Shown: positions 1-38,308 of the stretch, one piece after another | How positions within the stretch are numbered: position 1 is the stretch's first letter | Layout of the letters: every line of letters begins with the position of its first letter | Source: Dictyostelium discoideum | Taxonomy: Eukaryota | Length of the DNA: 64,000 nt | NCBI GenBank assembly: GCA_000004695.1 | Contig: CM000151.3 | Coordinates: 512,001 to 576,000, forward strand | Reading direction: 5' to 3' | Position numbers and translations under genes: made by a program | The notes under the pieces: model-generated | Seen by the model: only the letters and a program-made list of their open reading frames with translations | Databases searched by the model: none | Told to the model about the DNA's origin: nothing

Positions 1-23
1 CATCATATTATGATTTCGTTATA

Positions 24-15461: not shown

Positions 15462-15477
15462 CGGAAATGAAAAAAAA

Positions 15478-15516
<39 letters not shown>

Positions 15517-16348
15517 GCAAAAAAAAAAAAAAAAAAAAAAAAATTTGGTTTTTTTTTTTTTTAATTTTTTTTTTTTAATTTTTTTTTTTATTTTTTTTTT
15601 AAATTAATTTATATTTATTTTAGGAGTCAATCCATTCATCTAAATCTATTTTCTCAACTGCTTTTGGAGTAACTGTTATTGAAAAAATTATATTTATTTG
15701 AGACTGTTGAGAATGTTTTTTTGTTTTATTTTTTTATAAAATATTTAATATACCATCTGGATGAATATTTTTTTATAAAATTTAATTAATTAAATTCTCT
15801 CTTTTTTTATTTATAAACAAAACTATAGAACCAACTGACAACATCTTCATACTCCATTGGAATTCTTCGGCACTCAGAGATTAAAATTAAATGATCCCAT
15901 CATTTTACCATTAGAAGATGGATCGTTTAAACTTGTTTTTGGTTATCCACCTTTTGATATTGAAATAATTGAGGTTAAATATTTGGGTGATGGTAGAATT
16001 GGAATAAGATACCATGTCTTATTACCATCAAGAGAAGATCTAGAAACAATAGTTGGTTATGATTATTCATCCAGATGGTATATTAAATATGATTGTCTAC
16101 CACTCAAAACCACAAGCTTTCACTTTCTTCATCACTCTGCCTCTACAAAAGAACAAGAAAAATATCAAAGTTGTAAAATCGATATTGAAAAAGATATAAA
16201 ATATTTTTCAATAACAGTTACTCCAAAAGCAGTTGAGAAAATAGATTTAGATGAATGGATTGACTCCTAAAATAAATATAAATTAATTTAAAAAAAAAAT
16301 AAAAAAAATAAAAAAAATAAAAAAAAACAATTTTTTTTTTTTTTTTGC

Positions 16349-16390
<42 letters not shown>

Positions 16391-16412
16391 CATTTCCAGC
16401 GTCTCTATTAAA
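15462..16412. repeat. Nested inverted-repeat (foldback-like) element, ~950 bp overall, with ~510-bp central region; candidate non-autonomous DNA transposon or hairpin-forming repeat
   Basis: Outer arms 15462..15545 vs reverse complement of 16330..16412 ('tagagatgccggaaatgaaaaa...aaatttggcaaaaa' vs 'tagagacgctggaaatgaaaaa...aaatttggcaaaaa'). Inner arms 15602..15690 vs reverse complement of 16202..16290 appear identical by eye. T-rich and A-rich spacers between arms are also complementary. Confidence 0.5.
15857..16270 (+). CDS. Hypothetical 137-aa ORF inside the inverted-repeat element (no recognisable domain); 3' end lies within the right inner repeat arm
   Basis: ORF 'MEFFGTQRLKLNDPIILPLEDGSFKLVFGYPPFDIEIIEVKYLGDGRIGIRYHVLL...' is not low-complexity, unlike most of the neighbouring intergenic sequence; no similarity to any family I recognise. 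Confidence 0.3.
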   Translation: MEFFGTQRLKLNDPIILPLEDGSFKLVFGYPPFDIEIIEVKYLGDGRIGIRYHVLLPSREDLETIVGYDYSSRWYIKYDCLPLKTTSFHFLHHSASTKEQEKYQSCKIDIEKDIKYFSITVTPKAVEKIDLDEWIDS

Positions 16413-16815
16413 AAAAACAAAATAAAAAAAAAAAAAAAATTAAAAAAATAAAAAAAAAATTAAAAAAATAAAACAAAAAAACATTTTCAAATAAAAGAAA
16501 AAAGAAAAATATTGTGGATCGAAGAGAATCGATTTTTTTTTTTTTTTTTTATTAATCGTTAGAATTTGCAATTAAATTGCGATTTTTTAATTTTTTTGAT
16601 CTGAAATGAATTTTAAAAATCATAATATTAATAATAGTAATAAAAAAATTAATGATAAATAATTTATTTATTTAATTTTATATATTTTGGAGTTTTCTTT
16701 CGAAACTTTTCAGTCGAAAAATAAAAAATTAAGAAAAATGAAAAAAAAAAGTTTTGGTTCACGCTTTACAATATTCTTATAATATAAATTGTGTTGTTCC
16801 TTTATTTATTATGAT

Positions 16816-18190
16816 CATTTTTTTTTTTTGGTATAAATAAACTATTGTAGTATACAATTAGTATGTTATTTTTATTTATTTATTTTAGGTTTTTTAGTTT
16901 TTGTGAATTTAAAATGGTATGTTATTTTAGATGTGGTAATTAATAATTAATTGGTAGTGTAATTGTTGGAATTGGTTCATTTGTGTTTATGCTCCATTCT
17001 TTTTTAAATTTTTTGATGGTTTCGGACCATTGGGTTTCTTTTTGAGTTTTTGTGAGGTTGTTTTTAATTGAGTATTGGTTAAAGTTTGATAATGTTCTTG
17101 AATATTCCAATCTTATTAGCTTGTGCCATTTTGATTTTAATATATCATAATCTAGTGTTGTGTTGTTTATTTGGTTGTTCCAATTGTCAATTGATTGAGT
17201 TATATTGATGTCAAATAATGATTTGCATAACCATATTTGGTGAATAACTAATGAGATTATGTTCCAATATGCATGTGTTCTGACTAGATCAAGATTTGTT
17301 TATATAATTCCAGTTGAATCTGTATTTTTTATATTGTGCGTTTTCTGCTAAATGAAAATTAATATTGATAGTTGGATCTGGTTTAAATGCTTTGTTGTTT
17401 GTTTGTGGTTTATAAATGAGTGTGTATAATTTTGTTGTTTGGTTTTTTGTTAGTGACCAGTTTTTGTTTCCATTGCAATTTTTATATATAAAATATTTTA
17501 ATTTGTCGTGGTTTATGAAGTTGATTGTGTGCTGACAATTGAAAAACAAATGACCATAGGGATCATTATTCATTTCATTGTTGCAAATGGGGCAAACTTT
17601 GTTGTGTAGATGATTAATTGGAAGACATCTAGCATGGAATCTTTGCATTGTATCACGGCCTTTTGGATCTTTTAATTTTTGAATTTTGACAAATAGTTGG
17701 TCGTATGTGTATTTCCATAATAGTTGTATTGATTGTTGGTGCGAAGTAAGAAGTATATCTGAATATTTCTTGCCAACATAGTCTTTTGATTTACATTGGT
17801 GATTGTTGAGTATTGTCGAGTAGATTTCTTTGAGTGTTGGTGGTAGTGAAATATTATTTGTGGTTAATGTTTGAGAGGTTTGGTTTTTTGTTAATATTGG
17901 TTGTAGGGTTTGAACTTTATCTTTTAGATGTCCAATTTGAGTTGCATAGTTTTCCCATTCTTTTTTGATTTTTATAAGGTATGGAGAAGAGATTGATTTG
18001 TTGATGATTTGATCCATCCAACTTATCATGTATATTGAATTGTTTGCAGATTTATGCTTTTGTAAAAATCTGTTGTATATCCAAATCTTTTGAGCAACTT
18101 GTCGTAATTGTATATTCCACATACCCCAACCACCTTCTTTTAATGGTGTTTCAACAAATTGAAACAAATTGAAACAAGTTTTTTTAATGT
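16816..18190 (-). mobile_element. 5'-truncated non-LTR (TRE/LINE-like) retrotransposon fragment: ORF2 C-terminal region with CCHC finger, 3' UTR and short poly(A)
   Basis: The minus-strand ORF ends with 'CPICNNEMNNDPYGHLFFNC' (C-x2-C-x10-H-x4-C), as at the C-terminus of non-LTR ORF2 proteins. The + strand is locally G+T-rich rather than AT-rich; the minus strand runs into a 12-nt A-tract at 16816..16827. Confidence 0.5.
17289..18167 (-). CDS. Retroelement ORF2 C-terminal fragment (292 aa, truncated at its 5' side)
   Basis: ORF-track protein with a C-terminal CCHC-type finger and no homolog among the cellular genes in the window. Confidence 0.5.
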   Translation of the reverse strand: MFQFVETPLKEGGWGMWNIQLRQVAQKIWIYNRFLQKHKSANNSIYMISWMDQIINKSISSPYLIKIKKEWENYATQIGHLKDKVQTLQPILTKNQTSQTLTTNNISLPPTLKEIYSTILNNHQCKSKDYVGKKYSDILLTSHQQSIQLLWKYTYDQLFVKIQKLKDPKGRDTMQRFHARCLPINHLHNKVCPICNNEMNNDPYGHLFFNCQHTINFINHDKLKYFIYKNCNGNKNWSLTKNQTTKLYTLIYKPQTNNKAFKPDPTININFHLAENAQYKKYRFNWNYINKS

Positions 18191-18689
18191 TTAAAAAAGG
18201 AATCTCTAAAAATAACCTATATTTAAAAATAATAAAATTTTTTAAAATTCCAACTTTTTAAAAATGGTTTTTTTATTTTTTAATTGAAAAAAAAAAAAAA
18301 ATTAAACCCAATTAAACAAAATTTTTTTTCTAATTAATCAAACATGATATTATTTTCTCCAAATTTAAAATATTTTTAAATTATTCCACATCATAAAATG
18401 TATACATATGTGTATTTTATTGTGAAAAATCCCCTTGTTAATGAAGGGAAATTTTTTTTGAAATTTCACTACAAAAAGATTTGGTATGAAAATTTGAAAA
18501 AGACAAAAAAAAAAAAAAAATTAAAATTAAAAAAAATATCTTCACGTGGGAATTTATTTTCAGAAAAACCTTTTTTTTTTTTCATTTTTTATTTTTTTTT
18601 ATTTTTTAAATTCTTAATAATAAATAAAATGACAGTAAAATAAACATAAAAACAAAAACCAAATTTACAGACTTTATTTTTAAAATCCC

Positions 18690-18790
18690 CAACATGATAC
18701 CGATTATCTCCAAATTTAAAATGTTCCACACTATATAAAAAAAAGTGGTACTTGATAATTTTAATTAATATTCATTTTTTTTTATTGGTT
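18690..18790 (+). promoter_or_regulatory. Conserved PKS upstream block (putative promoter of PKS paralog 3); a partial second copy lies at 18340..18415
   Basis: 'atctccaaatttaaaatgttccacac...aaaaaaaagtggtacttgataattttaattaatattcatt...tcacctatttt' matches the block upstream of paralog 2; 'tctccaaatttaaaatatttttaaattattccacatcataaaatg' at 18352-18400 repeats its first part. Confidence 0.3.
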
Positions 18791-18980
18791 CACCTATTTT
18801 TAACTGCTTCTTACTATAAAAAATAATAGTAAAAAAAAAAGTAAATAATGCAAGTTTCTAAAAAAAAAAAAAAATATAAATTAAAAAAAAAAAAAACAAA
18901 ATTTAATTTTAAAATTAATTTAGAATTATTTCTGGTAATAACTAATAGAGATATTCCTCAACTAAAATAACTAAGCACCA

Positions 18981-19617
18981 ATGAATAATTTAGAAATTAT
19001 AAATTTAATAGATAAAGGTGTTGCAATTGTTGGGGTGGGGTTTAGAATTCCTTCTGGTAATAATGAAAATTCAATTTGTTCACCAGATGATTTATTTAAT
19101 AATTTAAAGAATGGTTTTGATGGTGTTAGTAGTACATCAGAAAGATGGAGTGACAATTTTCATAAATTAGGTGAAATTAGTAGTCCAAATGCAGGTTTAT
19201 TACCATTTAATGAATGCAAATCATTCGATCCATTATTTTTTGGTATTAATCCATCCGATGCTCATCAGATTGATCCTCAACAAAGATTATTATTAAAATG
19301 TACATGGGAAGCATTAGAAGATGCATCTATCGATCCAATTTCAATTCGTGGTACAAATACTTCAGTTTTCATTGGTTCTTCAAATATTGATTATCAACAT
19401 ATAAATAAACACCAAGACTCAGTTTTAAAAAATGTAATAGCACAATCTGCCTATGCTGTTTCAAATAGAATTTCATACTGTTTCGATTTTAATGGTCCAT
19501 CATTATCAATCGATACTGCATGTTCATCATCATTAAATGCAGTTTCTCAAGGTTATCATTCAATATTAAATGGTACTTCCAATATGTCAATTGTTGGTGG
19601 TGTAAATTTAATATTAG
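18981..19617 (+). CDS. PKS paralog 3, exon 1 (KS N-terminal half)
   Basis: ATG 18981 '[28 protein letters not shown]...[15 protein letters not shown]...VGGVNLILG' followed by a GTAAGA donor at 19618. Confidence 0.85.
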
Positions 19618-19691
19618 GTAAGAATTACATTTAAATATATTATATATAAAATACACTCATTAATTAATTTTTTATTTAAATATTTTACTAG
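19618..19691 (+). other. Intron 1 of PKS paralog 3 (74 bp, phase 1)
   Basis: GTAAGA...TTACTAG; splicing restores '...LILG|DVGMIKAYSYLSMLSKTHGKCKAFD'; the 74-nt length explains the frame shift between the exon 1 ORF (frame 0) and the exon 2 ORF (frame 2). Confidence 0.8.
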
Positions 19692-22600
19692 ATGTTGGAA
19701 TGATAAAAGCATATTCGTATTTAAGCATGTTAAGTAAAACACATGGTAAATGTAAAGCATTTGATGAAAGTGGCGATGGTTTTACACGTGGTGAATGTGC
19801 TACTATTGTAGTTTTAAAAAATTTACAAGATGCAGTTAAAGATGGTAATAGAATTTATTGTGTAATTAATGGCTCAAGTTCAAACGTTGATGGCGGCGGT
19901 CATATGGATAAAGTTAACCTTTATTCACCATCAAAGCAATCACAATTTAATAATATTAATTCAGCATTTAAATCAACCAATGGTAAACTTTCAATTAATG
20001 ATATTCAATATATCGAAGCACATGGTACTGGTACTAAAACAGGCGATCCAATTGAAACTGAAGCAATTTCAATGGCTTTTAAAAATAGAGATAAATCAAC
20101 ACCAATTCTAATTGGTTCAATTAAAAGTAATATTGGTCATTGTGAAGCTGGTTCAGGTGTTGCATCATTAATCAAATGTTGTTTAATGTTTAAATATCAA
20201 TGCTTTTTACCAAATATTCATTTCAAAAATCCAAATCCATTAATTAAATTCAATGAATGGAATTTAAAAGTTGTAACATCACCAATTCCATTCAACAAAA
20301 GAATTAATGAAAAACCAGTTTCAATGATGATTAATAACTTTGGTGTAACAGGTTCAAATTGTTGTTTACTTATTTCAGAATTTAAAAAACAAGATTATGA
20401 ATCATATGAAAACAACAACAACAACAAAAGTAATCATAAAAATATATTAATACCATTCTCAGCAAATTCATCAAATTCATTAAATCAATACCAATCAAAA
20501 TTTAAAAATATAATTAATAATCAATTCAATTTTATTGATTTTACCGCAAATCAAATTTATTCAAAATCAAATTATCTTTATCAAAGATCAGTTGTAATTG
20601 CAAGTAATTCAAATGAACTTTTTGAAAAAATTTTAAATAAAAAACAAATTCAAACTAAAAATTCAATCATTTCGAATATGTCATTCAAAGGAAAGAACCC
20701 AATTACAATTTTTGTTTTTTCAGGTCAAGGATCACAATATCCTAAAATGGCTTTAGAATTATATAATAATGATGAAATTTTTAAGAAGTCAATTGATTTA
20801 ATCGATTCAAAATTATCAAAGTACTATGGTTATTCAGTATGGGGGAAGTTAACAACGATCAAAGATGATGACTTGACCTCAATACATGATCCAATTTTCG
20901 CACAACCAGCACTGTGTATGCTTTCAGTATCACTATTTGAAATATATTGCCATTGGGGAGTAAATCCATCATTTATTCTTGGTCATAGTCTTGGTGAAAT
21001 TTCAGCAGCATATTGTTCTGGAATGATCGATTTAGATACATTCTGTTATACAGTTTATTACAGATCAATCGCCCAATCTAAAACAAATGGTTGTGGTAGA
21101 ATGTTATCAATTAATATCAGTGATGAAGAATTTAAATCAATGTATTCTCAAAAGTATCCACAAATTGAAATTGCGTGTTATAATTCACCTCAATCAATTG
21201 TTGTGGCAGGTAATGAATCAATATTAAATGAAATTTCGAAAGAATTAAAAGAAAAAGAAATTTTCACTGCAATGTTAGGTTCATTATCATCATTCCATAC
21301 AAGTAGTCAGCAATGTACAAAAGATAGTATATTACAACTAAACATTGAAAGTAATCAACCAAAAGTACCAATATTTTCAACAGTTACAACAAATTTATTT
21401 AATGAATCAAATCGATTTAATTCACAATATGTTTATGATAATATTATCAAACCAGTTAAATTCACACAAACAATTTCAAATATTTATAAACATATCGAAT
21501 CAAATCAATTAAATAATGATATTGTATTCATTGAAATTGCACCACATCCAACAATATCATTTTATATTAAGCAAATGGTACCATCAAGTTTAAATGAATC
21601 AGTTTCAGTTTATTCAGCACTTCACAAGAAAAAGAATGATGTCGAAGAGTTTCAACAAACCATTTCAAATTTATATTGTCAAAATGGATATAGTATTAAT
21701 TTTAAATGTCAATTGGAAAATAAAAAATCAAATCAATCAATAAATTTACCACTTTACCAATGGGATGATGAATTATACTTCGCTCAAACTCAAACACTTG
21801 AACAATATACAAAAGAAGGACCACCAATCGATCATCTTGGTCTATCAAACTCTTATTATTCACCATTTAAAAATTCATATAGAACATTTATTGATATAAA
21901 TAATAAACCATTCCAATATCTTAAAGGTCATATGGTTAAAGGTAAATACTACTTCCCAGGTTGTGGTTATATCGATATTATTATTCAACTTTATAAAAAT
22001 CAAGATATTTTTATTAGTTTTATTGAATTTAAAACACCATTAATTTTAATTGAAGGTATCAATCAATATTTACAAACAAACATTCAACAAACTGGTAAAA
22101 GTGAATATCGTGCACAATTTCATTTCAAAGATCAAAAATCAAATGAATGGATTCAATCATCAAATGCAAATTTCCAATTATTAGATCATGGTAATGATAT
22201 ACCATCAAATTATAATATTGAAGAAATTATTAAAAACAAATGTAATTTGAGCAAATTAACAAAGAATGAACTTTATACACAAATAAAATCAAAAACTGGT
22301 TTGAATTATACTGGTGTTTTTCAAGGTGCTACTGAATGTTATTTAGGTAATGATTGTTCATTATCAGTTTTATCTTTAAAATCTCAAACAAATTCATTTT
22401 TAAATATACCAATTTTAGATACATGTTTACATGGAATGTTAGTATTAATAAATGATCAAAGTCAAATTGTATTTGATAAAGCCATTGGATTTAAATATTA
22501 TTCATCAAACATACCATCGGATCTTAAAGAATATAAAGATAGTATTTATGTTTATTCCAATTTAAAACCAAAAAATGCTGATTCATACCATGGATCTATT

Positions 22601-25600
22601 ATAGTAATGTTATCAGATGGTTCAGTTTTATATGAAATTCAAGAAGTTATTTTTAAATCATTAATTCCAATCAAACATTCACTTAAAATTGAGTATCCAA
22701 ATGATGAATTATACAAAGTTCATTTACAATCAAAAGATTCTCAAATTCCAACGCCATCATCATTCAAATCAATTATTTATGAAAATGATTTCTTCCATTC
22801 TGCACTTAATATTCCAGAAGATTTATTCAAATATATTTCAACATTATTTTATAAAGATATTATAAAAAGATGTCCAGAAATTAATATCAATAAAATTAAT
22901 TCTCATAGTGTTAATGAAATTATTTCAAGTTTCAGTAAAATTTCAAAAAATCAAAGATTATTTAGATTTGTATTTGAAACAATAAAAGAGAATGGTATTC
23001 TTAATAGTTTGGAAGAAAATGATGATGCTTATTTCGAATTTAATGAATTAGTTATTAAATCATCAAAAATTATTTCAAAATTATTATTCCCACTAGAAAG
23101 TGATAATGATAATGAAGATTTACCTCAATCATTATTTCAAAATGGTTTAATGGATAAAATTTATAAATGCAGTTATTTAAGAAAGAAGTATCAAATGATT
23201 TCACATGTCATTATACATTCAATTAAAGAGATTATTAATAATAATATTATAATTAGAATTTTAGAATTTGGAGGAGGCACTGCGTCATTATCAGTTGAAG
23301 TTATTGGAGAAATCGTTGCATTACTTCAAGAGAATCCAAATTATCAAGTTGAAATCGAATATACATGGAGTGATATTTCACCTGCATTCATAGCAGATGC
23401 AAAGAATAAAATCAATAAAATCATTAATGATGCTGCTATAACAAATGGATTAAATGTTATTTATCGTTCATTAACAATCGATGAATCATTGCTTGAAAAT
23501 CAAGCAATTAAACCATCATATTATGATTTCGTTATAATGTCAAATGTTCTTCATGTTGTTAAAAATATTAAACAAGCTGTAGAACAAATGTATCAATTGT
23601 TAACACCGAATGGTCAATTGCTATTTATAGAACCACCTTATAAATCAGTTCTAATCGATTCAATCATTGGTTCATTTGAACAATGGTGGTCATTCACTGA
23701 TACTGATATTAGAAAAGATAGATGTGGTATGTCTCAACAAAGTTGGTATCAATTATTAAAGACATGTAATTTTAAAGACATTTTAATGTCAAAAGAATGC
23801 ATCTTTGTTGGGTCAGTAATACATGCACAAAAACCACCAATTTCTTTATTGAATTCTCAACCAAAACATGATAATATAATTATATATGGTGGTGGTGGTA
23901 ATTTAAGTTTTGTAGAAAACATCAAATTAGATTCAAATTCAAAAAGTTTAATTCAAATTGAAACTATTCAAGAATTTAATCAATTATTAAGTCAATCAAC
24001 AATTACAAATGATTCAATAATTTATTTCATAAAAACATTAGAAACATTATCATTGGATAATTATAAACAAATAACTCTTGAATATATTGAAATCAATCAA
24101 AGACTATTACAAATCAATAGTTTATGTAAACATGTATTAATTGTTAGTGATTCAAGAAAAACTAACTATTTAGCATCATCAGTTGTTGGTGCTGCAAGAT
24201 ACTTTGATGAATTCCAACAATTGAAATTACACACATTAGATTTTGATTATGATTCAACTCAAAATTATATAAATTCAAAAAATAACAAAATGGTTCAATT
24301 CATTAATATCTTGGTGGACTCCAAAACAAATGTTCATAAAGAAATGATTATAATTAATAACAAAGTATATTATGAAATAGTTCAAAAAGAGAAAAATCTA
24401 AAACTAAAATACAATTCAGAATCTTTTGAAAATCAAAATAATTTAATGTGTTCATTATCACCAAATTTAGAATATCAATTACAATCAAAACAAATTAAAT
24501 TAAGAGATAATCAAGTTGAAGTTAAAACAATTGCAACTGGTATCAATTATAAAGATTATTTAAATTTTAGCGGTTCAAATAATAATAATGGTGATGACAA
24601 TACAGGTTTACCACAATTTGGATATGAATTTTCAGGTATTATAACAAGAGTTGGTAATAATGTAAAAGATTATAAAGTTGGTGATAATGTATTTGGTTTA
24701 TCAAATTCTTGTACATCATCCCACATTGTTACAAATTTTAAAAATATTCAATTAAAACCTTCAAACATAAGTCATAACGAAGCATCATCAATTCCAATTG
24801 ATTATTTAACATCATTTATGAGTTTATTTAATGTTGGTAGTTTAAATATTGAAGATAATGAATCAATTCTAATTCATTTAGGTAGTGATAGTTTTGGATT
24901 ATCAACATTTGAAATATTAAAATGGAAAGGTTTTAAATCAAATTTATTCGTTACAGTTGATTTGGACGAAACTAAACAATATCTTCTAGATAGATATGGT
25001 GATTTTATTACTGGAATTTATTCAAACACAGATAAAAGTTATGTTACAGAAATAAAAAACGAATTAATTAAATTAGGTTCAAAAAAGAAAGGAGTAGATT
25101 TAATATTAAATACATTACCAAGTGATTTTATGGATTCAAATTTCGAGTTATTAACAAAGAGTGGTAGAATAATTGATTTAACTTCAAATCATTTAAATCA
25201 AAGTGAATTTTTAAAAAATATCAATTTTAAATATAACCATGGTTACCACAACTTTCAGTTATCATTAATTCAAAAAAATAAAATACAAAAATGTTTATAT
25301 GAAATTTCACATGCTATTGAAAATGGAGAATTAAAAACTATTCCAATTAAAGAATTTACAAATTTAAATATTAAAGATGCCATCAAATACATTACCAACG
25401 GTAACATTGAAAAAATTACAGTTAGTCATGATCATGAAATTTATAGTGATATTATTTATAGATCTTTAGATGAAAAAGAGTTTTCAATATTAAAATCAAA
25501 TTATCAAATTAATTCAAATAATTTAGGTAAAAACATATTAATTACAGGTCAATCAGGTATTATTTTAGAAATATTAAAATGGATCATTAAATATTCAAAT

Positions 25601-26599
25601 ATTAACACAATTGAAAATGTTATTATTCTTTCAAGATCATCATTAAAATGGGAATTAGAATTATTAATTAATCAAACTAAACTATCAAATAATAATATTA
25701 AATTTCATTTCAAGAGTGTTGATGTCGGTGATAGTGAACAAGTTGATAATGCAATCAATGAAATATTAAATGAAAATCAACAAATTACAAATATTGATTC
25801 AATATACCATTTTGCATTTCAACAAATTACATGTAAAGTTCAAGAAATCAATATGAAACATTTAGATATTTCACATGGAGCAAAATCAATGGGTGCAGTT
25901 AATTTACATAATCAATCAATTAAACGTAATTGGAAATTAATTAATTTTGTTATGGCTTCTTCTGCACTTTCATTAATAGGTTCAACAGATCAATGTACAT
26001 ATGCCTGTGCAAACCTATTATTAGATTCATTTTCAAAATACAGAGAATCACTTGGATTACCATCTGCTTGTATTAACCTTGGGTCAATTGAATCAACTGG
26101 TTTCGTTTCAAAGAATGAATCAATTTCAGAATTTACAGATGGCATTGGTTACGTTCCAACACCTATCAATCTAGTTTTAGGTCTTTTAGATTTACAAATT
26201 CAAAATGCAGGTAAATTTACGAATTCAATGCTTTCAAATTTAATATCATCAAAATTTAAAAATATTCAACAAACATCATTATTTCTAAAATTTGATTACT
26301 TGATGAATTTAAATGACAACAGTGAACAAACTAAAAAAGAGAATATTGGAAATAAAAACATTGATGAATTATTCATTGAGAAAGTTTCAGAATTATTTTC
26401 AACGGATCAATCAAGAATAAATAAAAATCTTAGATTAATTGATTATGGCGCAGATTCATTAATAATAGTTCAATTAAAGAATTGGATAGATAAAGAAATT
26501 GGTATAAATTTAATAACAATTAAACAACTTCAAAACAATACAATTAATATTTCAATCAAAATGATATTAAATTCATTAATGAAAAATAATCAAATATAG
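19692..26599 (+). CDS. PKS paralog 3, exon 2: KS(C-term)-AT-DH-cMT-ER-KR-ACP; stops 3 codons into the linker that precedes the reductase domain in the full-length paralogs ('...MKNNQI*')
   Basis: Same motif set as paralog 2. A premature TAG sits at the position where the paralog at 29447 continues 'NIDDNNKDLPSNRIDYW...' into the R domain. Confidence 0.85.
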
Positions 26600-26700
26600 A
26601 TGACAATAATAATACATACAATAGATATTAACCCAATGAAAATCAAAACATTACTAGAATTATCAACAGATAATGGGTGATCTTGAAATTTTTTATTTAA
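26600..26700 (+). pseudogene. Remnant of the 3' end of a deleted thioester-reductase (R) domain directly downstream of the PKS paralog 3 stop
   Basis: 'acaatagatattaacccaatgaaaatcaaaacattactagaattatcaacagataatgggtgatcttgaaatt' aligns to the last ~90 nt of the R-domain coding sequence of the paralog at 38160..38250 ('aatagatataaacccaatgaaaatcaaagca...cattactagaatcaatgggctcatacaacactgatcttgaaatcac'). Confidence 0.7.
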
Positions 26701-26970
26701 ATAAGATTCAAATTTTACTTTGCGTTTTTTTTATTTAATATTTTTAGATTTGGGTAGTTTTGGACATTATAAAATAAAAAATCTAAATCTAAATAAAATA
26801 AAAAATACAAATCTAAATTATTCTTTTTTATAAAAAAAAAAAAAAAAAAAAAAGTCAAATCAACATAAAAACATCTTCAGACATTATTTTTAAAATTGAA
26901 TTTATAAAAAAAATTTTATTTATAAAAATAAAATTTTTTCTCAATTAATATAGATATTTCAAAACTAAAT

Positions 26971-28450
26971 TATGAATAATTTTAAAAAATATAAATTTAA
27001 TAGATAAAGGTGTTGCAATTGTTGGGGTGGGGTTCAGAATTCCTTCTGGTAATTATGAAAATTCAATTAGTTCACCAGATTATTAAATTTAATAATTTAA
27101 AGAATGGTTTTGATGGTGTTAGTAGTACATCAGAAAGATGGAGTGACAATTTTCATAAATTAGGTGAAATTAGTAGTCCAAATGCAGGTTTATTACCATT
27201 TAATGAATGCAAATCATTCGATCCATTATTTTTTGGTATTAATCCATCCGATGCTCATCAGATTGATCCTCAACAAAGATTATTATTAAAATGTACATGG
27301 GAAGTATTAGAAGATGCATCTATTGATCCAATTTCAATTCGTGGTACAAATACTTCAGTTTTCATTGGTTCTTCAACTATCGATTATCAACTGTTTCGAT
27401 TTTAATGGTCCATCATTTTCAATGCATGTTCATCATCATTAAATGTTGTTTAATGTTTAAATATCAATGCTTTTTACCAAATATTCATTTCAAAAATCCA
27501 AATCCATTAATTAAATTCAATGAATGGAATTTAAAAGTTGTAACATCACCAATTCCATTCAACAAAAGAAATAATGAATTACCAGTTTCAATGATGATTA
27601 ATAACTTTGGTTTAACAGGTTCAAATTGTTGTTTACTTTTAACAGAATATAAAAAACAAGATTATGAATCATATGAAACTATCTACAAAAATGATAATAG
27701 TAAAAATATATTAATACCATTTTCAGCAAATTCAACAAATTCATTAAATCAATACCAATCAAAATTTAAAAATATAAATAATAATCAATTCAATTTTATT
27801 GATTTTACCGCAAATCAAATTTATTCAAAATCAAATTATCTTTATCAAAGATCGGTTGTAATCGCAAGTAATTCAAATGAACTTTTTGAAAAAATTTTAA
27901 ATAAAAAACAAATTCGAAATAAAAATTCAATCATCTCAAATATGTCATTCAAAGGAAAGAATCCAATTACAATTTTTGTTTTTTCAGGTCAAGGATCACA
28001 ATATCCTAAAATGGCTTTAGAATTATATAATAATGAAGTAATCTTTAAAAAATCAATTGATTTAATCGATTCAAAATTATCAAAGTACTATGGTTATTCA
28101 GTATGGGAGAAGGTAAAAAAAATCAAAGATTATGATACTACTTCCATTCATGATCCAACTATTGTACAACCAGCAGTGTGTATGTTTTCAGTATCATTAT
28201 TTGAATTGTATTGCCATTGGGGAGTAAATCCATCATTTATTCTTGGTCATAGTATTGGTGAAATTTCAACATTATATTGTTCTGGAATAATCGATTTAGA
28301 TACATTTTATCACAGATCAATAGCACAAACTAAAACACACTGTAATGGTGGGCATCCACTGATATTGATATTAGGAAAAATAGATGTAGTATGTCTCAAC
28401 AAAGTTGGTATCAATTATTAAATAACAGTAATTATAAAGACATTGCAATG
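26971..28450 (+). pseudogene. Decayed PKS copy: KS N-terminal fragment and AT-domain fragment joined to a short cMT-region fragment, with internal deletions, frameshifts and an in-frame stop
   Basis: Begins 'atgaataattttaaaaaatataaatttaatagataaagg' like the intact genes. 'gattattaa' introduces a stop at ~27083. The KS C-terminal half is missing (27390-27440 jumps from '[10 protein letters not shown]' to 'IKCCLMFKYQCF'). The AT region is intact until 28335, then fuses to 'actgatattgatattagg...tgtagtatgtctcaacaaagttggtatcaattattaaa', which in intact paralogs lies ~2.7 kb further 3' (cMT region), and sequence similarity ends ~28450. Confidence 0.8.
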
Positions 28451-29098
28451 TGCATGCTAAAATTAAAAAGATTCCTTTATTGTATCCAAAAAATAAAAGT
28501 GAAAAAAAAAAAAAAAAGAATGGTTTAAAAAAAAAAAAAAAAGGGTTAAAAATATAATAAATTAATTTTTAATAAATGTTGAGAGAAAGTATTTAAATTT
28601 TTTTTTTATTTTATTTTTTATTTTTTTTTTTTTTCCTATTCTCTGGGATTATAATCTGAAAAAGGGTTTTTTTTTTTTAAACAAATATGGGCTTACTAAT
28701 AATTTAAATTGGTAAAAAAAAACAGAAAGGATGATATATACAAAAAAAAAAATATTTTTTGTCCTTGAATATAATTTTTTCAAATATTATATCATTGTTG
28801 TTTTATAATTAATTTGAATTTGTATAATTTTATGAATTTTATCTGGTGTGAATCTGCAAAAAATTTTATATTTTTTTTTATTTTTTTATCTGGTGGAAAT
28901 CTACAAAAAAAACAACAATAAATCTATAGATTTAAAAAATTAAAAAATCGTCATTATTTTTTTTTTTGGTATGGCTTTCTCTAAACGAATCCCCACGAAA
29001 AAAAATTATAAACTTCTAATTTTCTAAGGCCACAGTGCTGCACAAAATTACTTTTCACTTTATAGTGCTGAAATTTTTACATCCAACCCCCAAAATTT

Positions 29099-29135
<37 letters not shown>

Positions 29136-29224
29136 CATATGTACAAAAAAATAAATAAAAATAAATAATTTAACAACAAAATGAACACAAAAACAAAATA
29201 CATTTCTTCAAGTATTATTTTTAA

Positions 29225-29345
29225 AATAAATCAAATGTGCTGTTAGTTAATCTCCTGAATAAAAATTTTTTATAAATTTTACCACATAAAGCCTTTAAAA
29301 AAAGTTTGTGTTTAATAATTTTAATTAATAAAATCATGTAAATAA
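29225..29345 (+). promoter_or_regulatory. Conserved PKS upstream block (putative promoter of PKS paralog 4)
   Basis: 'taatctcctgaataaaaa...aaattttaccacataaagcctttaaaaaaagtttgtgtttaataattttaattaata' shares the atctcct / tttaccaca / aaaaaaagt / ttaataatt(c/t)taattaata elements with the other paralogs. Confidence 0.3.
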
Positions 29346-29446
29346 TGAAAGTTTTTTAAAAAAAATATAAATTTAAAACAACAATATTTAATTTTAATAA
29401 AAAATTTTCTTCACTAATTTTGATATTTCAAAACTACTAAATACCT

Positions 29447-30083
29447 ATGGGTAATTTAAAAAATATAAATTTAAAAGAGAAAGGAGTTGCAATTGTTGGT
29501 ATTGGATTTAGAATTCCTTCTGGTAATAATGAAAATTCAATTAGTTCACCAGATGATTTATTTAATAATTTAAAGAATGGTTTTGATGGTGTTAGTAGTA
29601 CATCAGAAAGATGGAGTGACAATTTTCATAAATTAGGTGAAATTAGTAGTCCAAATGCAGGTTTATTACCATTTAAAGAATGGAAATCATTCGACCCATT
29701 ATTTTTTGGTATTAATCCATCTGAAGCTCCATTAATCGATCCTCAACAAAGATTATTATTAAAATGTACATGGGAAGCATTAGAAGATGCATCTATTGAT
29801 CCAATTTCAATTCGTGGTACAAATACTTCAGTTTTCATTGGTTCTTCAACTATTGATTATTTACATACAAATAAACATCAAGACTCAGTTTTAAAGAATG
29901 CAATAGCACAATCAACCAGTGCGATTTCAAATAGAATTTCATACTGTTTCGATTTTAATGGTCCATCACTATCAATTGATACTGCATGTTCATCATCATT
30001 AAATGCAGTTTCTCAAGGTTATCATTCAATATTAAATGGTACTTCCAATATGTCAATTGTTGGTGGTGTAAATTTAATATTAG
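29447..30083 (+). CDS. PKS paralog 4 (full-length copy), exon 1 (KS N-terminal half)
   Basis: ATG 29447 '[28 protein letters not shown]...[15 protein letters not shown]...VGGVNLILG' followed by a GTAAGG donor at 30084. Confidence 0.85.
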
Positions 30084-30830
30084 GTAAGGATTATTATTTT
30101 TTTTTTAAAATTAAAAATACACTTATTAATTAAAATTTATTTTTATTAGATGTTGATATTATAAAAGCATATTCGATTTTAAGCATGTTAAGTAAAACAC
30201 ATGGTAAATGTAAAACATTTGATGAAAGTGGCGATGGTTTTACACGTGGTGAATGTGTCGGTGTTGTAGTTTTAAAGAATTTACAAGATGCAGTAAAAGA
30301 TGGTAATAGAATTTATTGTGTAATTAATGGTTCAAGTTCAAATGTTGATGGTAATGGTAATATGGATAAAGTTAACTTTTATTCACCATCAAAACAATCA
30401 CAATTTAATAATATTAATTCAGCATTTAAGTCAACAAATGACAAACTCTCGATTAATGATATTCAATATATCGAAGCACATGGTACCGGTACTAAAACAG
30501 GCGATCCAATTGAAACTGAAGCAATTTCAATGGCTTTTAAAAATAGAGATAAATCAACACCAATTCTAATTGGTTCAATTAAAAGTAATATTGGTCATTG
30601 TGAAGCTGGTTCAGGTGTTGCATCATTAATCAAATGTTGTTTAATGTTTAAATATCAATGCTTTTTACCAAATATTCATTTCAAAAATCCAAATCCATTA
30701 ATTAAATTCAATGAATGGAATTTAAAAGTTGTAACCTCACCAATTCCATTCAACAAAAGAAATAATGAAAAACCAGTTTCAATGATGATTAATAACTTTG
30801 GTGTAACAGGTTCAAATTGTTGTTTACTTA
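29468..30830 (+). other. Domain: ketosynthase (KS), spans intron 1
   Basis: Cys '[10 protein letters not shown]' in exon 1; His motifs 'EAHGTGTKTGDP' and 'NIGHCEAGSG' in exon 2. Confidence 0.8.
30084..30149 (+). other. Intron 1 of PKS paralog 4 (66 bp, phase 1)
   Basis: GTAAGG...TTATTAG; splicing gives '...LILG|DVDIIKAYSILSMLSKTHGKCKTFD'. Confidence 0.8.
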
Positions 30831-33800
30831 TTTCAGAATTTAAAAATAACAATAACTTTAAAGAGAATATTAATTTAGAATCTCAAAGTGTTAATGATAG
30901 AGTGTTAATACCATTCTCAGCAAATTCATCAAATTCATTAAATCAATACCAATCAAAATTTAAAAATATAATTAATAATCAATTCAATTTTATTGATTTT
31001 ACCGCAAATCAAATTTATTCAAAATCAAATTTTCTTTATCAAAGATCAGTTGTAATTGCAAGTAATTCAAATGAACTTTTTGAAAATATCTCAAATAAAA
31101 AACAAATTCAAACTAAAAATTCAATCATCTCAAATATGTCATTCAAAGGAAAGAACCCAATTACAATTTTTGTTTTTTCAGGTCAAGGATCACAATATCC
31201 TAAAATGGCTTTAGAATTATATAATAATGAAGTAATCTTTAAAAAGTCAATTGATTTAATCGATTCAAAATTATCAAAGTACTATGGTTTTTCAGTATGG
31301 GAGAAGGTAAAAACAATCAAAGATGATGACTTAACCTCAATACATGATCCAATTTTTGCCCAACCAGCACTATGTATGATTTCAGTATCACTATTTGAAT
31401 TATATTACCATTGGGGAGTAAATCCATCATTTATTCTTGGTCATAGTCTTGGTGAAATTTCAGCATCATATTGTTCTGGAATGATTGATTTAGATACATT
31501 CTGTTATACAGTTTATCAAAGATCAATAGCACAATCTAAAACAAATGGTTGTGGTAGAATGTTATCAATTAATATCAGTGATGAAGAATTTAAATCAATG
31601 TATTCTCAAAAGTATCCACAAATTGAAATCGCATGTTATAATTCACCTCAATCAATTGTTGTGGCAGGTAATGAATCAATATTAAATGAAATTTCAAAAG
31701 AATTAAAAGAAAAAGAAATTTTCACCACAATGTTAGGTTCATTATCATCATTCCATACAAGTAGCCAACAATGTACAAAAGATAGTATATTACAACTAAA
31801 CATTGAAAGTAATCAACCAAAAGTACCAATATTTTCAACAGTTACAACAAATTTATTTAATGAATCAAATCGATTTAATTCACAATATGTTTATGATAAT
31901 ATTATCAAACCAGTTAAATTCACACAAACAATTTCAAATATTTATAAACATATCGAATCAAATCAATTAAATAATGAAATTGTATTCATTGAAATTGCAC
32001 CACATCCAACATTATTATTTTATATTAAACAAATGGTACCATCAAGTTTAAATGAATCAGTTTCAGTTTATTCAGCACTTCATAAGAAAAAGAATGATGT
32101 CGAAGAGTTTCAACAAACCATTTCAAATTTATATTGTCAAAATGGATATAATATTAATTTTAAATGTCAATTTAATAATAAAAAATCAAATCAATCAATA
32201 AATTTACCACTTTACCAATGGGATGAAGAATTATATTTCACTCAAGCCCAAACTCTCGAACAACATAGAAAAGAAGGACCACCAATTGACCATCTTGGTA
32301 CATCAAACTCTTATAATTCACCATTTAATAATTCATATAGAACATCAATCGATATAAAGAATAAACCATTTCTATATCTTAAAGGCCATATGGTTAAAGG
32401 TAAATACTACTTCCCAGGTTGTGGTTATATTGATAATATTATTCAACTTTATAAAAATCAAGATATTTTTATTAGTTTTATTGAATTTAAAACACCATTA
32501 ATTTTAATTGAAGGTATCAATCAATATTTACAAACAAACATTCAACAAACTGGTAAAAGTGAATATCGTGCACAATTTCATTTCAAAGATCAAAAATCAA
32601 ATGAATGGATTCAATCATCAAATGCAAATTTCCAATTATTAGATCATGGTAATGATATACCACCAAAGTATAATATTAAAGAAATTATTGAAAACAAATG
32701 TAATTTAAGCAAATTAACAAAGAATGAACTTTATACACATATAAAATCAAAAACTGGTTTAAATTATACTGGAGTTTTTCAAGGTGTTACTGAATGTTAT
32801 ATAGGTGGTGATTGTACATTATCAGTTGTATCTTTAGAATCTCAAACAAACTCATTTTTAAATATACCAATATTAGATACTTGTTTACATGGAATGATAG
32901 GATTGTCAAATGATCAATGTCAAATTGTATTTGATAAAGCTATTGGATTTAAATATTATTCATCAAACATACCAGCAAATTTAAAAGATTATAAAGATAG
33001 TGTTTATGTTTATTCCCATTTAAAATCAAAAAGTGTTGATTCATTCTTTGGATCTATAATAGTAATGTTATCAGATGGTTCAGTTTTATATGAAATTGAA
33101 GAAGTTGTTTGTAAATCATTAATTCCAATCAAAGATTCACTTAAAATTGAGTATCCTAATGATGAATTATACAAAGTTCATTTACAATCAAAAGATTCTC
33201 CAATTCCAACACCATCATCATTCAAATCAATTATTTATGAAAATGATTTCTTCCATTCTGCACTTAATATTCCAGAAGATTTATTCAAATATATTTCAAC
33301 ATTATTTTATAAAGATATTATAAAAAGATGTCCAGAAATTAATATCAATAAAATTAATTCTCATAGTGTTAATGAAATTATTTCAAGTTTCAGTAAAATT
33401 TCAAAACACGAAAGATTATTTAGATTTGTATTTGAAACAATAAAAGAGAATGGTATTCTTAATAGTTTGGAAGAAAATGATGATGCTTATTTCGAATTTA
33501 ATGAAGTAATTATCAAATCGTCAAGAATTATTTCAAAATTATTATTCCCACTAGAAAGTGATAATGATAATGAAGATTTACCTCAATCATTATTTCAAAA
33601 TGGTTTAATGGATAAAATTTATAAATGCAGATATTTAAGAAAGAAGAATCAAATGATTTCACATGTTATTAAACATTCAATTAAAGAGATTATTAATAAT
33701 AATATTATAATTAGAATTTTAGAATTTGGAGGAGGTACTGCATCATTATCAGTTGAAGTTATTGAAGAAATAATTGCATTACTTCAAGAGAATCCAAATT

Positions 33801-36800
33801 ATCAAGTTGAAATCGAATATACATGGAGTGATATTTCACCTGCATTCATAGCAGATGCAAAGAATAAAATCAATAAAATCATTAATGATGCTGCTATAAC
33901 AAATGGATTTAATGTTATTTATCGTCCATTAAAAATTGATGAATCATTGATAGAAACTCAATCAATTAATCCATCATATTATGATTTCGTTATAATGTCA
34001 AATGTTCTTCATGTTGTTAAAAATATTAAACAAGCTGTAGAACAAATGTATCAATTGTTGACTCCAAATGGTCAATTACTATTTTTAGAGCCACCTTATA
34101 AATCAGTTCTAAATGATTCAATAGTTGGTTCATTTGAACAATGGTGGTCATTCACTGATACTGATATTAGAAAAGATAGATGTAGTATGTCTCAACAAAG
34201 TTGGTGTCAATTATTAAAGACATGTAATTTTAAAGACATTGCAATGTCTAAAGAATGCATCTTTGTTGGTATTGTAATACATGCACAAAAACCACCAATT
34301 TCTTTATTGAATTCTCAACCAAAACGTGATAATATAATTATATATGGTGGTGGTAATCCAATTTTTGTAGAAAACATCAAATTATATTCAAATTCAAAAA
34401 GTTTAATTCAAATTGAAACTATTCAAGAATTTAATCAATTATTAAGTCAATCAACAATAACAAACGATTCAATCATTTATTTCATAAAAACATTAGAAAC
34501 ATTATCATTGGATAATTTTAAACAAATAACTCTTGAATATATTGAAATCAATCGAAAATTATTACAAATCAATAGTTTATGTAAACATGTATTAATTGTT
34601 AGTGATTCAAGAAAAACTAACTATTTAGCATCATCAGTTGTTGGTGCAGCAAGATACTTTGATGAATTCCAACAATTGAAACTAAATACTTTAGATTTTG
34701 ATTATGATTCAACTCAAAATTATATAAATTCAAATAATAAAGATATGGTTCAATTCATTAATATCTTGACAGATTCCAAAACAAATGTTCATAAAGAAAT
34801 GATTATAATTAATAATAAAGTATATTATGAAATAGTTCAAAAAGAGAAAAATCTAAAATTAAAATACAATTCAGAATCTTTTGAAAATCAAAATAATTTA
34901 ATGTGTTCATTATCACCAAATTTAGAATATCAATTACAATCAAAACAAATTAAATTAAGAGATAATCAAGTTGAAGTTAAAACAATTGCAACTGGTATCA
35001 ATTATAAAGATTATTTAAATTTTAGTGGTTCAAATAGCAACGGTGATGACAATACAGGTTTACCACAATTTGGATATGAATTTTCAGGTATTATAACAAG
35101 AGTTGGTAATAATGTAAAAGATTATAAAGTTGGTGATAATGTATTTGGTTTATCAAATTCTTGTACATCATCTCACATTGTTACAAATTATAAAAAAATT
35201 CAAATAAAACCTTCAAACCTAAGTCATAACGAAGCATCATCAATTCCAATTGATTATTTAACATCATTTATGAGTTTATTTAATATTGGTAGTTTAAATA
35301 TTGAAGATAATGAATCAATTTTAATTCATTTAGGTAGTGATGGTTTTGGATTATCAACATTTGAAATATTAAAATGGAAAGGTTTTAATTCAAATTTATT
35401 CGTTACAGTAAATTCATATGAAACTAAACGATATCTTCAAGATAATTACGGTGATTTTATTACTGGAATTTATTCAAACACAGATAAAAGTTATGTTACA
35501 GAAATAAATAAAAAATTAATTAAATTAGGTTCAAAAAAGAAAGGAGTAGATTTAATATTAAATACATTACCAAGTGATTTTATGGATTCAAATTTCAAGC
35601 TATTAGCAAAGTATGGTAGAATAATTGATTTAACGTCAAATCATTTAAATCAAAGTGAATTTTTAAAAAATATCAATTTTAAATATAATCATGGTTACCA
35701 TAACTTTGAGTTATCATTAATTCAAAAAAATAAAATTCACAAATGTTTATATGAAATTTCAAATGCTTTTGAAAATGGAGAATTAAAAACCATTCCAATT
35801 AAAGAATTTACAAATTTAAATATTAAAGATGCCATCAAATACATTACCAACAATAAAATTGAAAAAATTACAGTTAGTCATGATCATGAAATTTATAGTG
35901 ATATTATTTATAGATCTTTAGATGAAAAAGAGTTTTCAATATTAAAATCAAATTATCAAATTAATTCAAATAATTTAGGTAAAAACATATTAGTCACAGG
36001 TCAATCAGGTATTATTTTAGAAATATTAAAATGGATCATTAAATATTCAAATATTAATACAATTGAAAATGTTATTATTCTTTCAAGATCATCATTAAAA
36101 TGGGAATTAGAATTATTAATTAACGAAACTAAACTATCAAATAATAATATTAAATTTCATTTCAAGAGTGTTGATATCGGTGATAGTGAACAAGTTGATA
36201 ATGCAATCAATGAAATATTAAATGAAAACCAACAAATTACAAATATTGATTCAATATACCATTTTGCATTTCAACAAATTACATGTAAAGTTCAAGAAAT
36301 CAATATGAAACATTTAGATATTTCACATGGAGCAAAATCAATGGGAGCAATTAATTTACATAATCAATCAATTAAACGTAATTGGAAATTAATTAATTTT
36401 GTTATGGCTTCATCTGCAATTTCATTAATAGGTTCAACTGATTTATGTACATATGTTTGTGCAAATGCATTATTAGATTCATTTTCAAAATACAGAGAAT
36501 CACTTGGATTACCATCAACTTGCATTTGCCTTGGTGCAATTGAATCAACTGGTTTCGTTTCAAAGAATGAATCAGTTTCAGTATTTTTAGACGGTGGTGG
36601 TTTCCATCCAACACCAATCAATCAAGTTTTAGGCCTTTTAGATTTACAAATTCAAAATGCTGGTAAATTCACAAATTCAATGCTTTCAAATTTCAAACCC
36701 TCAAAATTTAAAAATAATCAACAAACATCATTATTTTTAAAATTTGATTACTTGATGAATTTAAAAAACAATAGCGAAGAAACCAAAATAGAGAATACTG

Positions 36801-38308
36801 GAAATAAGAACATTGATGAATTATTCATTGAGAAAGTTTCAGAATTATTTTCAATGGATGAATCAAAGATAAATAAAAATCTTAGATTAATCGATTATGG
36901 TGCAGATTCACTAATAATAGTTCAATTAAAAAATTGGATAGATAAAGAAATTGGTATAAATTTAATAACAATTCAACAACTTCAAAACAATACAATTAGC
37001 ACTTCAATGAAAATGATATTAAATTCATTAATGAAAAATAATCAAAATATAGATGACAATAATAAAGACCTACCTTCAAATAGAATCGATTATTGGAAGA
37101 ATGAAATGAAATTTGAAGAGTCTATTAAACCAATATCAAATGAAATACAATCAAGGAATAATTCAGAAAAAATTATTTTATTAACCGGTACAACTGGTTT
37201 TTTAGGTGGTTTCTTATTATTCAATATGGTAAGATTAGATTCATGTAAATTAATTTATTGTTTAATTAGAAATAAAAGTAAATCAAATAATCCATTAGAT
37301 GAAATTATAAATAATTTAAAATATCATCAACTTTATGAAAAATTAAATCAATCACAAATTTCAAAGATTATACCAATTATTGGTGATTTATCAATGAATA
37401 AACTTGGTCTTTCAAATGATGATTATGAAACAATTTCAAAAAATGTAAATTTAATAATCAATCCAGGTGCAGATATTAATCAAAAATCAAGTTACCAAGA
37501 TTGTAAATTAGTAAATGTAAATGGAGTAAAAGAAATTATTAAATTATCATTATCATCATTAAAACAAAGGATACCAATTGTAAACTTTTCATCATTTTCA
37601 GTATTTTTCAATCAATCACTTGATAAGAATTTTGATGAATCAGTTTTACCATCAATTGATAATATTGATAATTTACCAACAGAATATATGAAGAGTAAAG
37701 TTGTTGGTGAATATATTTTATTGGAAGCTTCTAAAAAATATAATATACCATCAATTTTAATTAGACCACCAAGTATATTTTTAAATCCAGAAACAGGTAT
37801 TGGTCATATTAGTGACTTCTCTTTATTATCAATCCAATCATGTTATGAATTAGGTTATTATCCAAATCAATTTGAAAATGATTTTATTTTAATTAATACA
37901 ATTACATGGTTATCAAATAATATTACAAATATTATAATGAATGATAATTGTTGGACAGATTCAAAAATGAATATTTATAATGTACATGGTAAACAAATTC
38001 AATCAAGTTTAATAATTAAACCACTTGAAAAACATTTCAATTGTAAACATATCAATACTAATGATTGGATTGATATGGTAAATAATTCAAATAAAAAATC
38101 ATGTATTAAATTAAAATCATTCCATTCTTTGGATATAATTTTAAAAAGTGAAAACAATAGATATAAACCCAATGAAAATCAAAGCATATCATTATCAACC
38201 AAATCATTACTAGAATCAATGGGCTCATACAACACTGATCTTGAAATCACTGATAAAATGATTATTTCTCATATTAATCAAATTTTTAATTTAAATGAAA
38301 CAATTTAA
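30150..38308 (+). CDS. PKS paralog 4, exon 2: complete KS(C-term)-AT-DH-cMT-ER-KR-ACP-R megasynthase (about 2920 aa after splicing) with C-terminal NAD(P)-dependent thioester reductase
   Basis: Continuous 2707-aa ORF; all catalytic motifs are listed in the domain entries below; stop TAA at 38306-38308. Confidence 0.9.
31160..32135 (+). other. Domain: acyltransferase (AT)
   Basis: 'FVFSGQGSQYPKMA' and active-site 'GHSLGEISA' (Ser at ~31445-31447). Confidence 0.8.
32280..33130 (+). other. Domain: dehydratase (DH)
   Basis: 'IDHLG...' N-terminal region and 'LKGHMVKGKYYFPGCGY' H-x3-G-x4-P active-site motif. Confidence 0.65.
33600..34300 (+). other. Domain: C-methyltransferase (cMT)
   Basis: SAM motif I 'ILEFGGGTASLSVEV'; downstream 'YDFVIMSNVLHVV' motif II/III-like. 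Confidence 0.65.
34940..35885 (+). other. Domain: enoylreductase (ER, MDR superfamily), nucleotide motif atypical
   Basis: 'QVEVKTIATGINYKDY...GYEFSGIITRVGNNVKDYKVGDNVFGL' and 'ILIHLGSDGFGLSTFEILKW'; the glycine-rich motif reads G-S-D-G-F-G rather than the canonical G-x-G-x-x-G. Confidence 0.55.
35970..36575 (+). other. Domain: ketoreductase (KR)
   Basis: Rossmann 'ILVTGQSGIILEIL'; catalytic 'CTYVCANALLDSF' (Y-x3-N). Confidence 0.65.
36800..37040 (+). other. Domain: acyl carrier protein (ACP)
   Basis: 'LRLIDYGADSLIIVQLKNWI', phosphopantetheine Ser in 'GADSL' at ~36908-36910. Confidence 0.75.
37165..38305 (+). other. Domain: C-terminal thioester reductase (R, SDR-type)
   Basis: 'ILLTGTTGFLGGFLLFNM' (TGxxGxxG NAD(P)-binding) and 'PTEYMKSKVVGEY' (YxxxK catalytic pair). 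Confidence 0.75.

Follow-up and report, generated by a model that had tools for sequence, protein, structure and literature searches.

A fragment of a polyketide synthase (PKS) gene, called psi here, lies between pks8 and pks9 at about 26892-28502 on the + strand of the 64,000-nucleotide stretch of DNA that was analysed as a whole (the window). It is very probably a non-processed (duplicated) pseudogene, the remnant of a fifth PKS copy. The fragment is real, well defined and ordinary, a neutrally evolving stump of a tandem PKS duplicate.

According to the proposed history, a unit of pks8/pks7 type would have been duplicated in tandem in the lineage leading to AX4, and at least four illegitimate deletions (80, 639, 2,590 and 31 bp) would then have shortened the copy from about 8-9 kb to 1.6 kb. 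Three of these four would have arisen at microhomologies of 2-6 bp, as fits replication slippage or microhomology-mediated end joining. The copy would also have lost all that lay 3' of the cMT end and gained small frameshifts and a nonsense codon. The 5' 470 bp would have stayed nearly identical to pks8, or been remade so by gene conversion, and an AT patch of roughly 200 bp would have come to carry pks7-type sequence. The original copy is presumed to have been of full length, though the duplication may have been partial.

The PKS array and the blocks of psi

The window is rich in A+T (77%) and its genes are those of the Dictyostelium discoideum AX4 chromosome 2 array pks6, pks7, pks8/35 and pks9/36. 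Three long genes were found on the + strand, pks7 (7478-15091), pks8 (18981-26599) and pks9 (29447-38308), and after removal of one short intron per gene they gave proteins of 2,513, 2,514 and 2,931 residues. In an exact protein look-up the three spliced proteins matched the AX4 entries "probable polyketide synthase 7", "8/35" and "9/36", and pks6 (P0003) was placed in the same cluster. The partial gene at 1-4313 is taken as pks6 on account of its position within the array and of an R+ 3' end. Downstream of pks9 the genes in the window are unrelated, and neither tRNA genes nor Rfam families were found in the whole window.

The intact tandem genes are 93-96% identical. In pks9 the domain order is KS, AT, DH, cMT, ER, KR, ACP and R, and pks7 and pks8 end directly past the ACP, without R. 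The start-to-start spacing is 10,466 bp from pks8 to pks9 and 11,503 bp from pks7 to pks8, a difference of 1,037 bp which agrees with the repeat unit about 1 kb shorter that had been noticed earlier. The spacer which holds psi measures 2.85 kb, against 3.2 and 3.9 kb for the others, and is thus of normal total length.

Two ORFs, neither with a Pfam match, were observed in the spacer between pks7 and pks8. One (15857-16270), which is not of low complexity, is flanked by a 247-bp inverted repeat at 15453-16407, with arms at 15453-15699 and 16190-16407 that are 85% identical; this unit may be a foldback or mobile element, or a small gene. The other (17289-18167, - strand) has 292 codons with a Cys/His-rich motif, in DNA where the GC skew is strong, and gave no significant Pfam match; a 348-aa gene is annotated there in assembly GCA_054883475.1. 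In the database pks8/35 and pks9/36 carry the names of duplicated genes and pks7 that of a single one, so the AX4 chromosome 2 duplication probably has its left boundary in this same spacer (15092-18980), and two copies of psi would then be expected in AX4.

When 26800-28700 was compared with the window by BLASTN, psi appeared as four collinear blocks on the same strand in each intact paralogue, with 88-97% identity and E-values of 0 to 1e-17. In the alignment with pks9, which had been proposed earlier as the way to the deletion endpoints, psi 26892-27387 corresponds to pks9 29362-29860, 27372-27451 to 29926-30011, 27427-28337 to 30616-31543 and 28344-28451 to 34140-34247, all on the + strand.

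The start of psi is that of an intact gene, ATG context included, just as the earlier note had it. The ATG at 26972 is homologous to the paralogue ATG, and the promoter-proximal DNA before it (26892-26971, +) matched the 5' flanks of pks7, pks8 and pks9 in BLASTN, over about 80 bp and weakly to about 180 bp, with a fainter similarity to the pks8 flank that reaches back to about 26791. Upstream identity is only 55-69% over 120 bp, like that of all paralogue pairs.

Block 1 (26972-27391, +) is the N-terminal part of KS (pks9 residues 1-138) and is 97.4% identical to pks8. Block 2 (27392-27445, +) is the stretch that contains the Cys motif of the KS active site (pks9 residues 167-187) and has lost 7 bp internally after 27422. 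Block 3 (27446-28343, +) runs from the last part of KS-C through the KS-AT linker (KAsynt_C_assoc) and the first third of AT (pks9 residues 375-677); its identity to pks8 is 93.3%, and it keeps GHSIG and has an in-frame 12-bp deletion at 28305/28306. Block 4 (28344-28451, +) represents the last part of the C-methyltransferase domain (pks9 residues 1543-1579), with 88-90% identity to the paralogues, and consists of 36 codons which stand out of frame and whose native-frame translation is WWASTDIDIRKNRCSMSQQSWYQLL.

Similarity had been thought to end after the cMT segment, but a degraded tail of 51 nt (28452-28502, +) follows a 31-bp gap and corresponds to pks9 34279-34329 (residues 1589-1606). 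It matches pks9 at 32 of 51 positions, a better result than at any other of the 8,811 ungapped positions tried along that gene, and the match falls at the collinear place, so that the remnant extends to about 28502; in pks7 and in pks8, too, the best position is the homologous one. Past 28502 BLASTN and BLASTX gave no PKS similarity and nothing of the remaining gene, and a search of 28503-29250 for further PKS pieces or pks8 3' flank (BLASTN with word size 7, BLASTX) gave only low-complexity matches. The A-run at 28503-28518 beside psi resembles many others in this DNA, and the search for tandem or inverted repeats in the flanks of psi gave A/T low complexity only.

No complete PKS domain is left. 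KS residues 188-374, which carry the HGTGT and NIGH motifs in the paralogues, are deleted, and neither catalytic His region remains. AT had been described as almost intact, a statement that has to be withdrawn, for only positions 1-104 of 319 of Pfam Acyl_transf_1 are present (pks9 residues 552-677 of 552-869), the rest being deleted at J3, the last of three internal junctions. DH, ER, KR, ACP and R are absent, and psi has no ORF in which an ACP is joined with DH, cMT, ER and KR.

Junctions in psi and the loss of R in its neighbours

J1 (27390-27391, +) is an 80-bp deletion (pks8 19399-19478) with a 2-bp microhomology, AC, which takes KS residue 138 to 167 and shifts the frame. J2 (27441-27445, +) is a 639-bp deletion (pks8 19540-20178) from KS residue 187 to 375, with a 5-bp microhomology, AAATG, sitting in a longer imperfect repeat (left CATCATTAAATG, right CATCATTAATCAAATG); the intron and the KS residues bearing both catalytic His were removed with it. 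J3 (28344-28349, +) is an out-of-frame deletion of 2,590 bp (pks7 9584-12173) with a 6-bp microhomology, AATGGT, which joins AT residue 677 to cMT residue 1543 and takes out the remaining AT, DH and most of cMT. The gap in the middle and C-terminal part of KS (jumps at 27391/27392 and 27445/27446) and the jump of 2.59 kb to the cMT end had both been recognised in the earlier note and are real; the number of internal jumps is three instead of two, the first being the 80-bp deletion.

The microhomologies sum to 2 + 5 + 6 = 13 bp. When deletions of equal size were placed at random in pks7 or pks8 by simulation, the average was 0.9 bp each, giving a mean of 2.7 bp, and a sum of 13 bp or more had a probability of about 0.0003. 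Joins between non-homologous gene positions at 2-6 bp of microhomology point to illegitimate deletions rather than to crossovers between misaligned repeats. As read from the DNA, J1-J3 are illegitimate microhomology-mediated deletions of a kind that would fit replication slippage or end joining. Since the pieces are collinear and in one orientation, the simplest history is that of one gene copy whittled down, and not of an assembly of fragments. The earlier picture of a PKS pseudocopy made of KS-5', AT and cMT pieces holds as to the pieces, with AT represented by KS-end/linker/AT-start, as to the lack of function and as to the recombining tandem array, and fails as to the building from fragments.

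Unequal homologous recombination between misaligned repeats, which would have made both the jumps in psi and the R loss of its neighbours, had been favoured at first and is now considered improbable. In its favour, the array is one of tandem genes with 93-96% identity, psi is a mosaic of pks8-type and pks7-type sequence, and the unit from pks8 to pks9 is about 1 kb shorter than that from pks7 to pks8. The breakpoints in psi, however, are without extended homology and every junction joins non-equivalent positions with 2-6 bp in common, so that a reading of the internal jumps as footprints of such recombination is not supported. A misaligned crossover yields full-length chimeras and the gain or loss of whole units, and a single crossover of pks8 with pks7 would put the chimera between pks7 and pks8 and not after pks8.

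The R-less genes bear on the same question. In pks8, R was lost by an internal deletion of 1,088 bp which joins the pks9-equivalent position 37065 to 38154, with a filler of 5 nt (TACAT, 26613-26617) at the junction. A remnant of the R C-terminus, 50 bp long (26618-26667), is left downstream of the stop, and the stop itself was created by a 1-bp deletion at about 26591. For pks7, homology to pks8 and pks9 stops at 15073, which is 20 bp short of the pks8 junction, and the DNA beyond is unrelated and relatively richer in G+C. This different 3' junction means that R loss in pks7 was separate from the pks8 event or was later reworked. The two R losses go back to two or more events, illegitimate deletions or rearrangements in kind, and neither the filler in pks8 nor the other junction in pks7 agrees with unequal recombination as their cause. 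Of the link drawn earlier between psi and the R-less genes, a deletion-prone array and the same class of illegitimate deletion in pks8 remain; homologous unequal recombination as the common mechanism does not, and pks7 has a junction of its own.

Disabling lesions, neutral change and exchange with neighbouring genes

The reading frame of psi is broken repeatedly. A +1 frameshift in an A-run at about 26985 leads to a stop at codon 12 (27005-27007), and a second +1 frameshift occurs at about 27085. The in-frame stop placed at about 27083 in the earlier note exists as a native-frame TAA at 27084-27086, in a frame already broken by the first frameshift. In comparison with pks8, the lesions also include deletions of 80, 7, 639, 12 (in-frame), 2,590 (out of frame) and 31 bp, and everything 3' of the cMT end is gone.

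Substitutions were counted in codon alignments of psi with three intact genes of AX4 and four of two diverged relatives. Private substitutions in psi were 22 nonsynonymous and 5 synonymous (omega about 1.1), indistinguishable from the 80% nonsynonymous expected under neutrality, against 32 and 29 in the seven intact genes pooled (omega about 0.28, differing from neutrality with P about 1e-6). The counts of psi and of the intact genes differed from each other with Fisher P = 0.017, on a psi sample of only 27 substitutions. In block 3 of psi the private substitutions were 19 nonsynonymous and 3 synonymous.

Homology to paralogues and to their flank, real lesions and a neutral substitution pattern are all found in psi, as in a duplicated (non-processed) pseudogene. 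A processed (retrocopied) pseudogene was ruled out, as psi keeps upstream flank homology and ends mid-gene; the intron site lies within the J2 deletion and so gives no information on a retrocopy origin. Judged by its sequence, psi is a dead gene with no predicted enzymatic function.

Two residual ORFs are left on the + strand. The first, of 116 codons (27055-27405), is called hypothetical protein KAM9951475.1 in GCA_054883475.1, an annotation call that is not evidence of function; the second, of 338 codons (27405-28421) with about 300 in the native frame, is called there in a 331-aa version as ACTFIT_002156. Both are real reading frames but pseudogene debris. That psi is still functional, through a short protein from the 338-codon linker/half-AT ORF or through a regulatory transcript from the promoter-proximal DNA, is very improbable. 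The survival of 338 codons in 77% A+T DNA, the two genes called by the automated annotation and the upstream homology that was kept would speak for it. The ORF, however, has the substitutions of block 3 with omega about 1.1 overall, is without two thirds of AT and without any other complete domain, and belongs to a fragment missing from both diverged relatives. An exact-sequence look-up with the 338-aa product gave no match, and a homologue search with it returned only one ACTFIR fragment besides the 331-aa call of GCA_054883475.1, neither of them an AX4 entry.

A sequencing or assembly artefact in the repetitive array can be dismissed with near certainty. Arrays of 8-kb genes with 94% identity are prone to collapse, and two single-base lesions lie within or next to homopolymer runs, but the independent long-contig assembly GCA_054883475.1 contains the same 27.6 kb with identical structure, 0 mismatches and 38 gap positions. 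Its only difference within the pks8-pks9 interval is the length of a homopolymer (A-run) at 28527, and the frameshifts, nonsense codons and large deletions of psi are identical in it. With 27 private substitutions, psi is not a collapsed mixture of its neighbours.

Block 1 differs from pks8 by 2.4% and from the remaining genes by 4.8-9%. Derived sites in block 1 are common to psi and pks8 in five cases against one conflicting, and four of the five, clustered at 27026-27032, may be one event. Mismatches to pks8 number 12 of 468 (2.6%) in blocks 1-2 and 70 of 1,003 (7%) in blocks 3-4 (Fisher P = 0.0004). From 28061 to 28130 psi is of pks8/9 type, and from about 28131 to 28337, up to J3, it is of pks7 type, with 9 sites common to pks7 against pks8 and its sister-genome counterpart. 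Block 4 keeps states which are found in pks6 and in all the relatives' genes and which were lost from AX4 pks7, pks8 and pks9. The pks8-like 5' end and the pks7-like AT patch show that exchange between paralogues is real, at places other than the jumps.

In every paralogue pair, psi included, identity falls from 93-97% to 55-70% exactly at the ATG (7358-7477, 18861-18980, 26852-26971 and 29327-29446); for psi it is 97% in the coding homology and 58% in the adjoining upstream 120 bp. The drop at the ATG agrees with the strong divergence reported for PKS promoters and with conversion tracts confined to coding DNA. Because psi is unconstrained, selection would be unable to keep its coding-homologous part at 97%, and gene conversion between psi and pks8 would be the simplest reading of this tract. 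Part of the contrast between coding and upstream identity could come from very fast indel turnover in AT-rich non-coding DNA. A further proposal, that the 5' 470 bp are still converting with pks8, so that psi could donate frameshifts or variants to a working PKS gene, and that the upstream DNA it has kept drives a junction-bearing transcript which regulates the near-identical pks7-9 genes at the RNA level, is speculative and has little probability.

A one-step origin was also considered, in which a single replication-based template-switching event of the FoSTeS/MMBIR type would have copied four collinear pieces of a neighbouring PKS gene into the spacer, so that psi was never a complete gene. 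It is unlikely. Collinear pieces, microhomology at all junctions and a spacer whose total length is normal speak for it, and such a complex rearrangement could yield the same collinear patchwork. The differences between blocks in divergence from pks8 (2.6% against 7%) and in paralogue type are left unexplained by it unless conversion came later, and the extra deletions of 7, 12 and 31 bp and the frameshifts amount to continued decay. The stepwise decay of a tandem copy is the preferred reading for the blocks and junctions of psi.

Distribution of psi and comparison with known systems

The fragment is present in two assemblies of NC4-derived laboratory background. Two loci from other assemblies labelled D. 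discoideum, L002 and L003, are about 6% diverged from AX4 across the locus, single-copy downstream genes included. Divergent isolates or cryptic species have been described (PMC12745789), and L002 and L003 probably belong to them. In L002 psi is absent between the pks8-like and pks9-like genes, and in L003 it is absent upstream of the pks9 orthologue.

At this place in L003 (6411-7693, GCA_054859385.1), immediately upstream of the pks9 orthologue, another PKS fragment was found, which is 1.28 kb long, covers DH-C/cMT, is 95.3% identical to pks7 11021-12303 and is annotated as a 472-aa protein. Orthology with psi was rejected for it: the L003 fragment groups with pks7-like genes and not with psi, and the two have 90% identity over their common 102 bp and no specific derived states in common. 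The patterns in L002 and L003 mean that psi is limited to the AX4/NC4 lineage as sampled and that PKS stumps arise repeatedly in the array.

Several further observations were made at these loci. The array is not the same in all lineages: of the three full-length genes of L002, two are R-less and have end points of their own, and the upstream gene of L003 appears split into a KS fragment of 278 aa and an AT-to-R gene of 2,331 aa. Depending on the segment, the paralogues at these loci cluster either by type across genomes or by genome, a mixed grouping which points to concerted evolution. The spacer stretch 28605-28657 (53 bp, between psi and pks9) matches the spacers upstream of the L002 and L003 pks9 orthologues at about 80%, in the opposite orientation; the stretch is T-rich and the match may be due to chance. 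The L003 fragment is directly followed by a perfect palindrome, GTCCCATGCCAAAATTA...TAATTTTGGCATGGGAC, fragment and palindrome lying within L003 6411-7760, and a palindrome-like motif occurs also in the pks6 3' flank (window 4463; L003 6057).

A transposon end at the 3' break of psi (28452-28466, GCATGCTAAAATTAA), which resembles the palindromic element after the L003 fragment and the motif in the pks6 3' flank, was considered and rejected because the 51-nt tail fits a continuation of the PKS gene better. The GCATGCTAAAATTAA motif has 6 matches in the window against 3.2 expected, a number reached in 13 of 100 shuffles, and the local alignments for this idea were weak, being reached by 7 to 179 of 300 shuffles.

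With psi, an apparently unnumbered PKS pseudogene fragment is added to a well-studied family, and its value is mostly that of bookkeeping. The two "hypothetical proteins" of GCA_054883475.1 (116 aa and 331 aa) are pseudogene debris and a warning for annotation, and psi is an extra off-target for guides or probes against pks7-9. It is also a small, clean example of the turnover of a secondary-metabolite tandem array in a very A+T-rich genome, by gain of whole-unit copies, decay through microhomology-mediated deletion (the class of the pks8 R loss) and patching by exchange with neighbours.

Among known systems, human CYP21A1P/CYP21A2 is a non-processed tandem pseudogene that exchanges sequence with its functional neighbour. 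Like it, psi stands in tandem to its closest paralogue, keeps its 5' flank, carries small frameshifts and deletions and has a tract of near identity that suggests conversion. Decay is far more extensive in psi than in CYP21A1P. Nearer at hand, the L003 fragment sits in the same slot as psi, is headless and tailless as well, and has its end in the cMT-to-ER linker, no more than about 30-50 bp away from that of psi, whereas it represents a different segment, DH-C/cMT.

Within the family, Zucko et al. 2007 are said to have described the D. discoideum PKS genes as lying in near-identical clusters, with five stop-interrupted pseudogenes among them. The pks1-45 numbering presumably has no number between pks8 and pks9, so psi is seemingly not one of these five. 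For D. discoideum, about 40-45 PKS genes in near-identical clusters are reported, with five pseudogenes interrupted by stop codons (PMC9618038). The five recognised pseudogenes and psi belong to the same family and organism and have disabled frames within clusters of near-identical genes; the five are described as gene-length, whereas psi is a stump of 1.6 kb from which about 80% of the gene has been lost.
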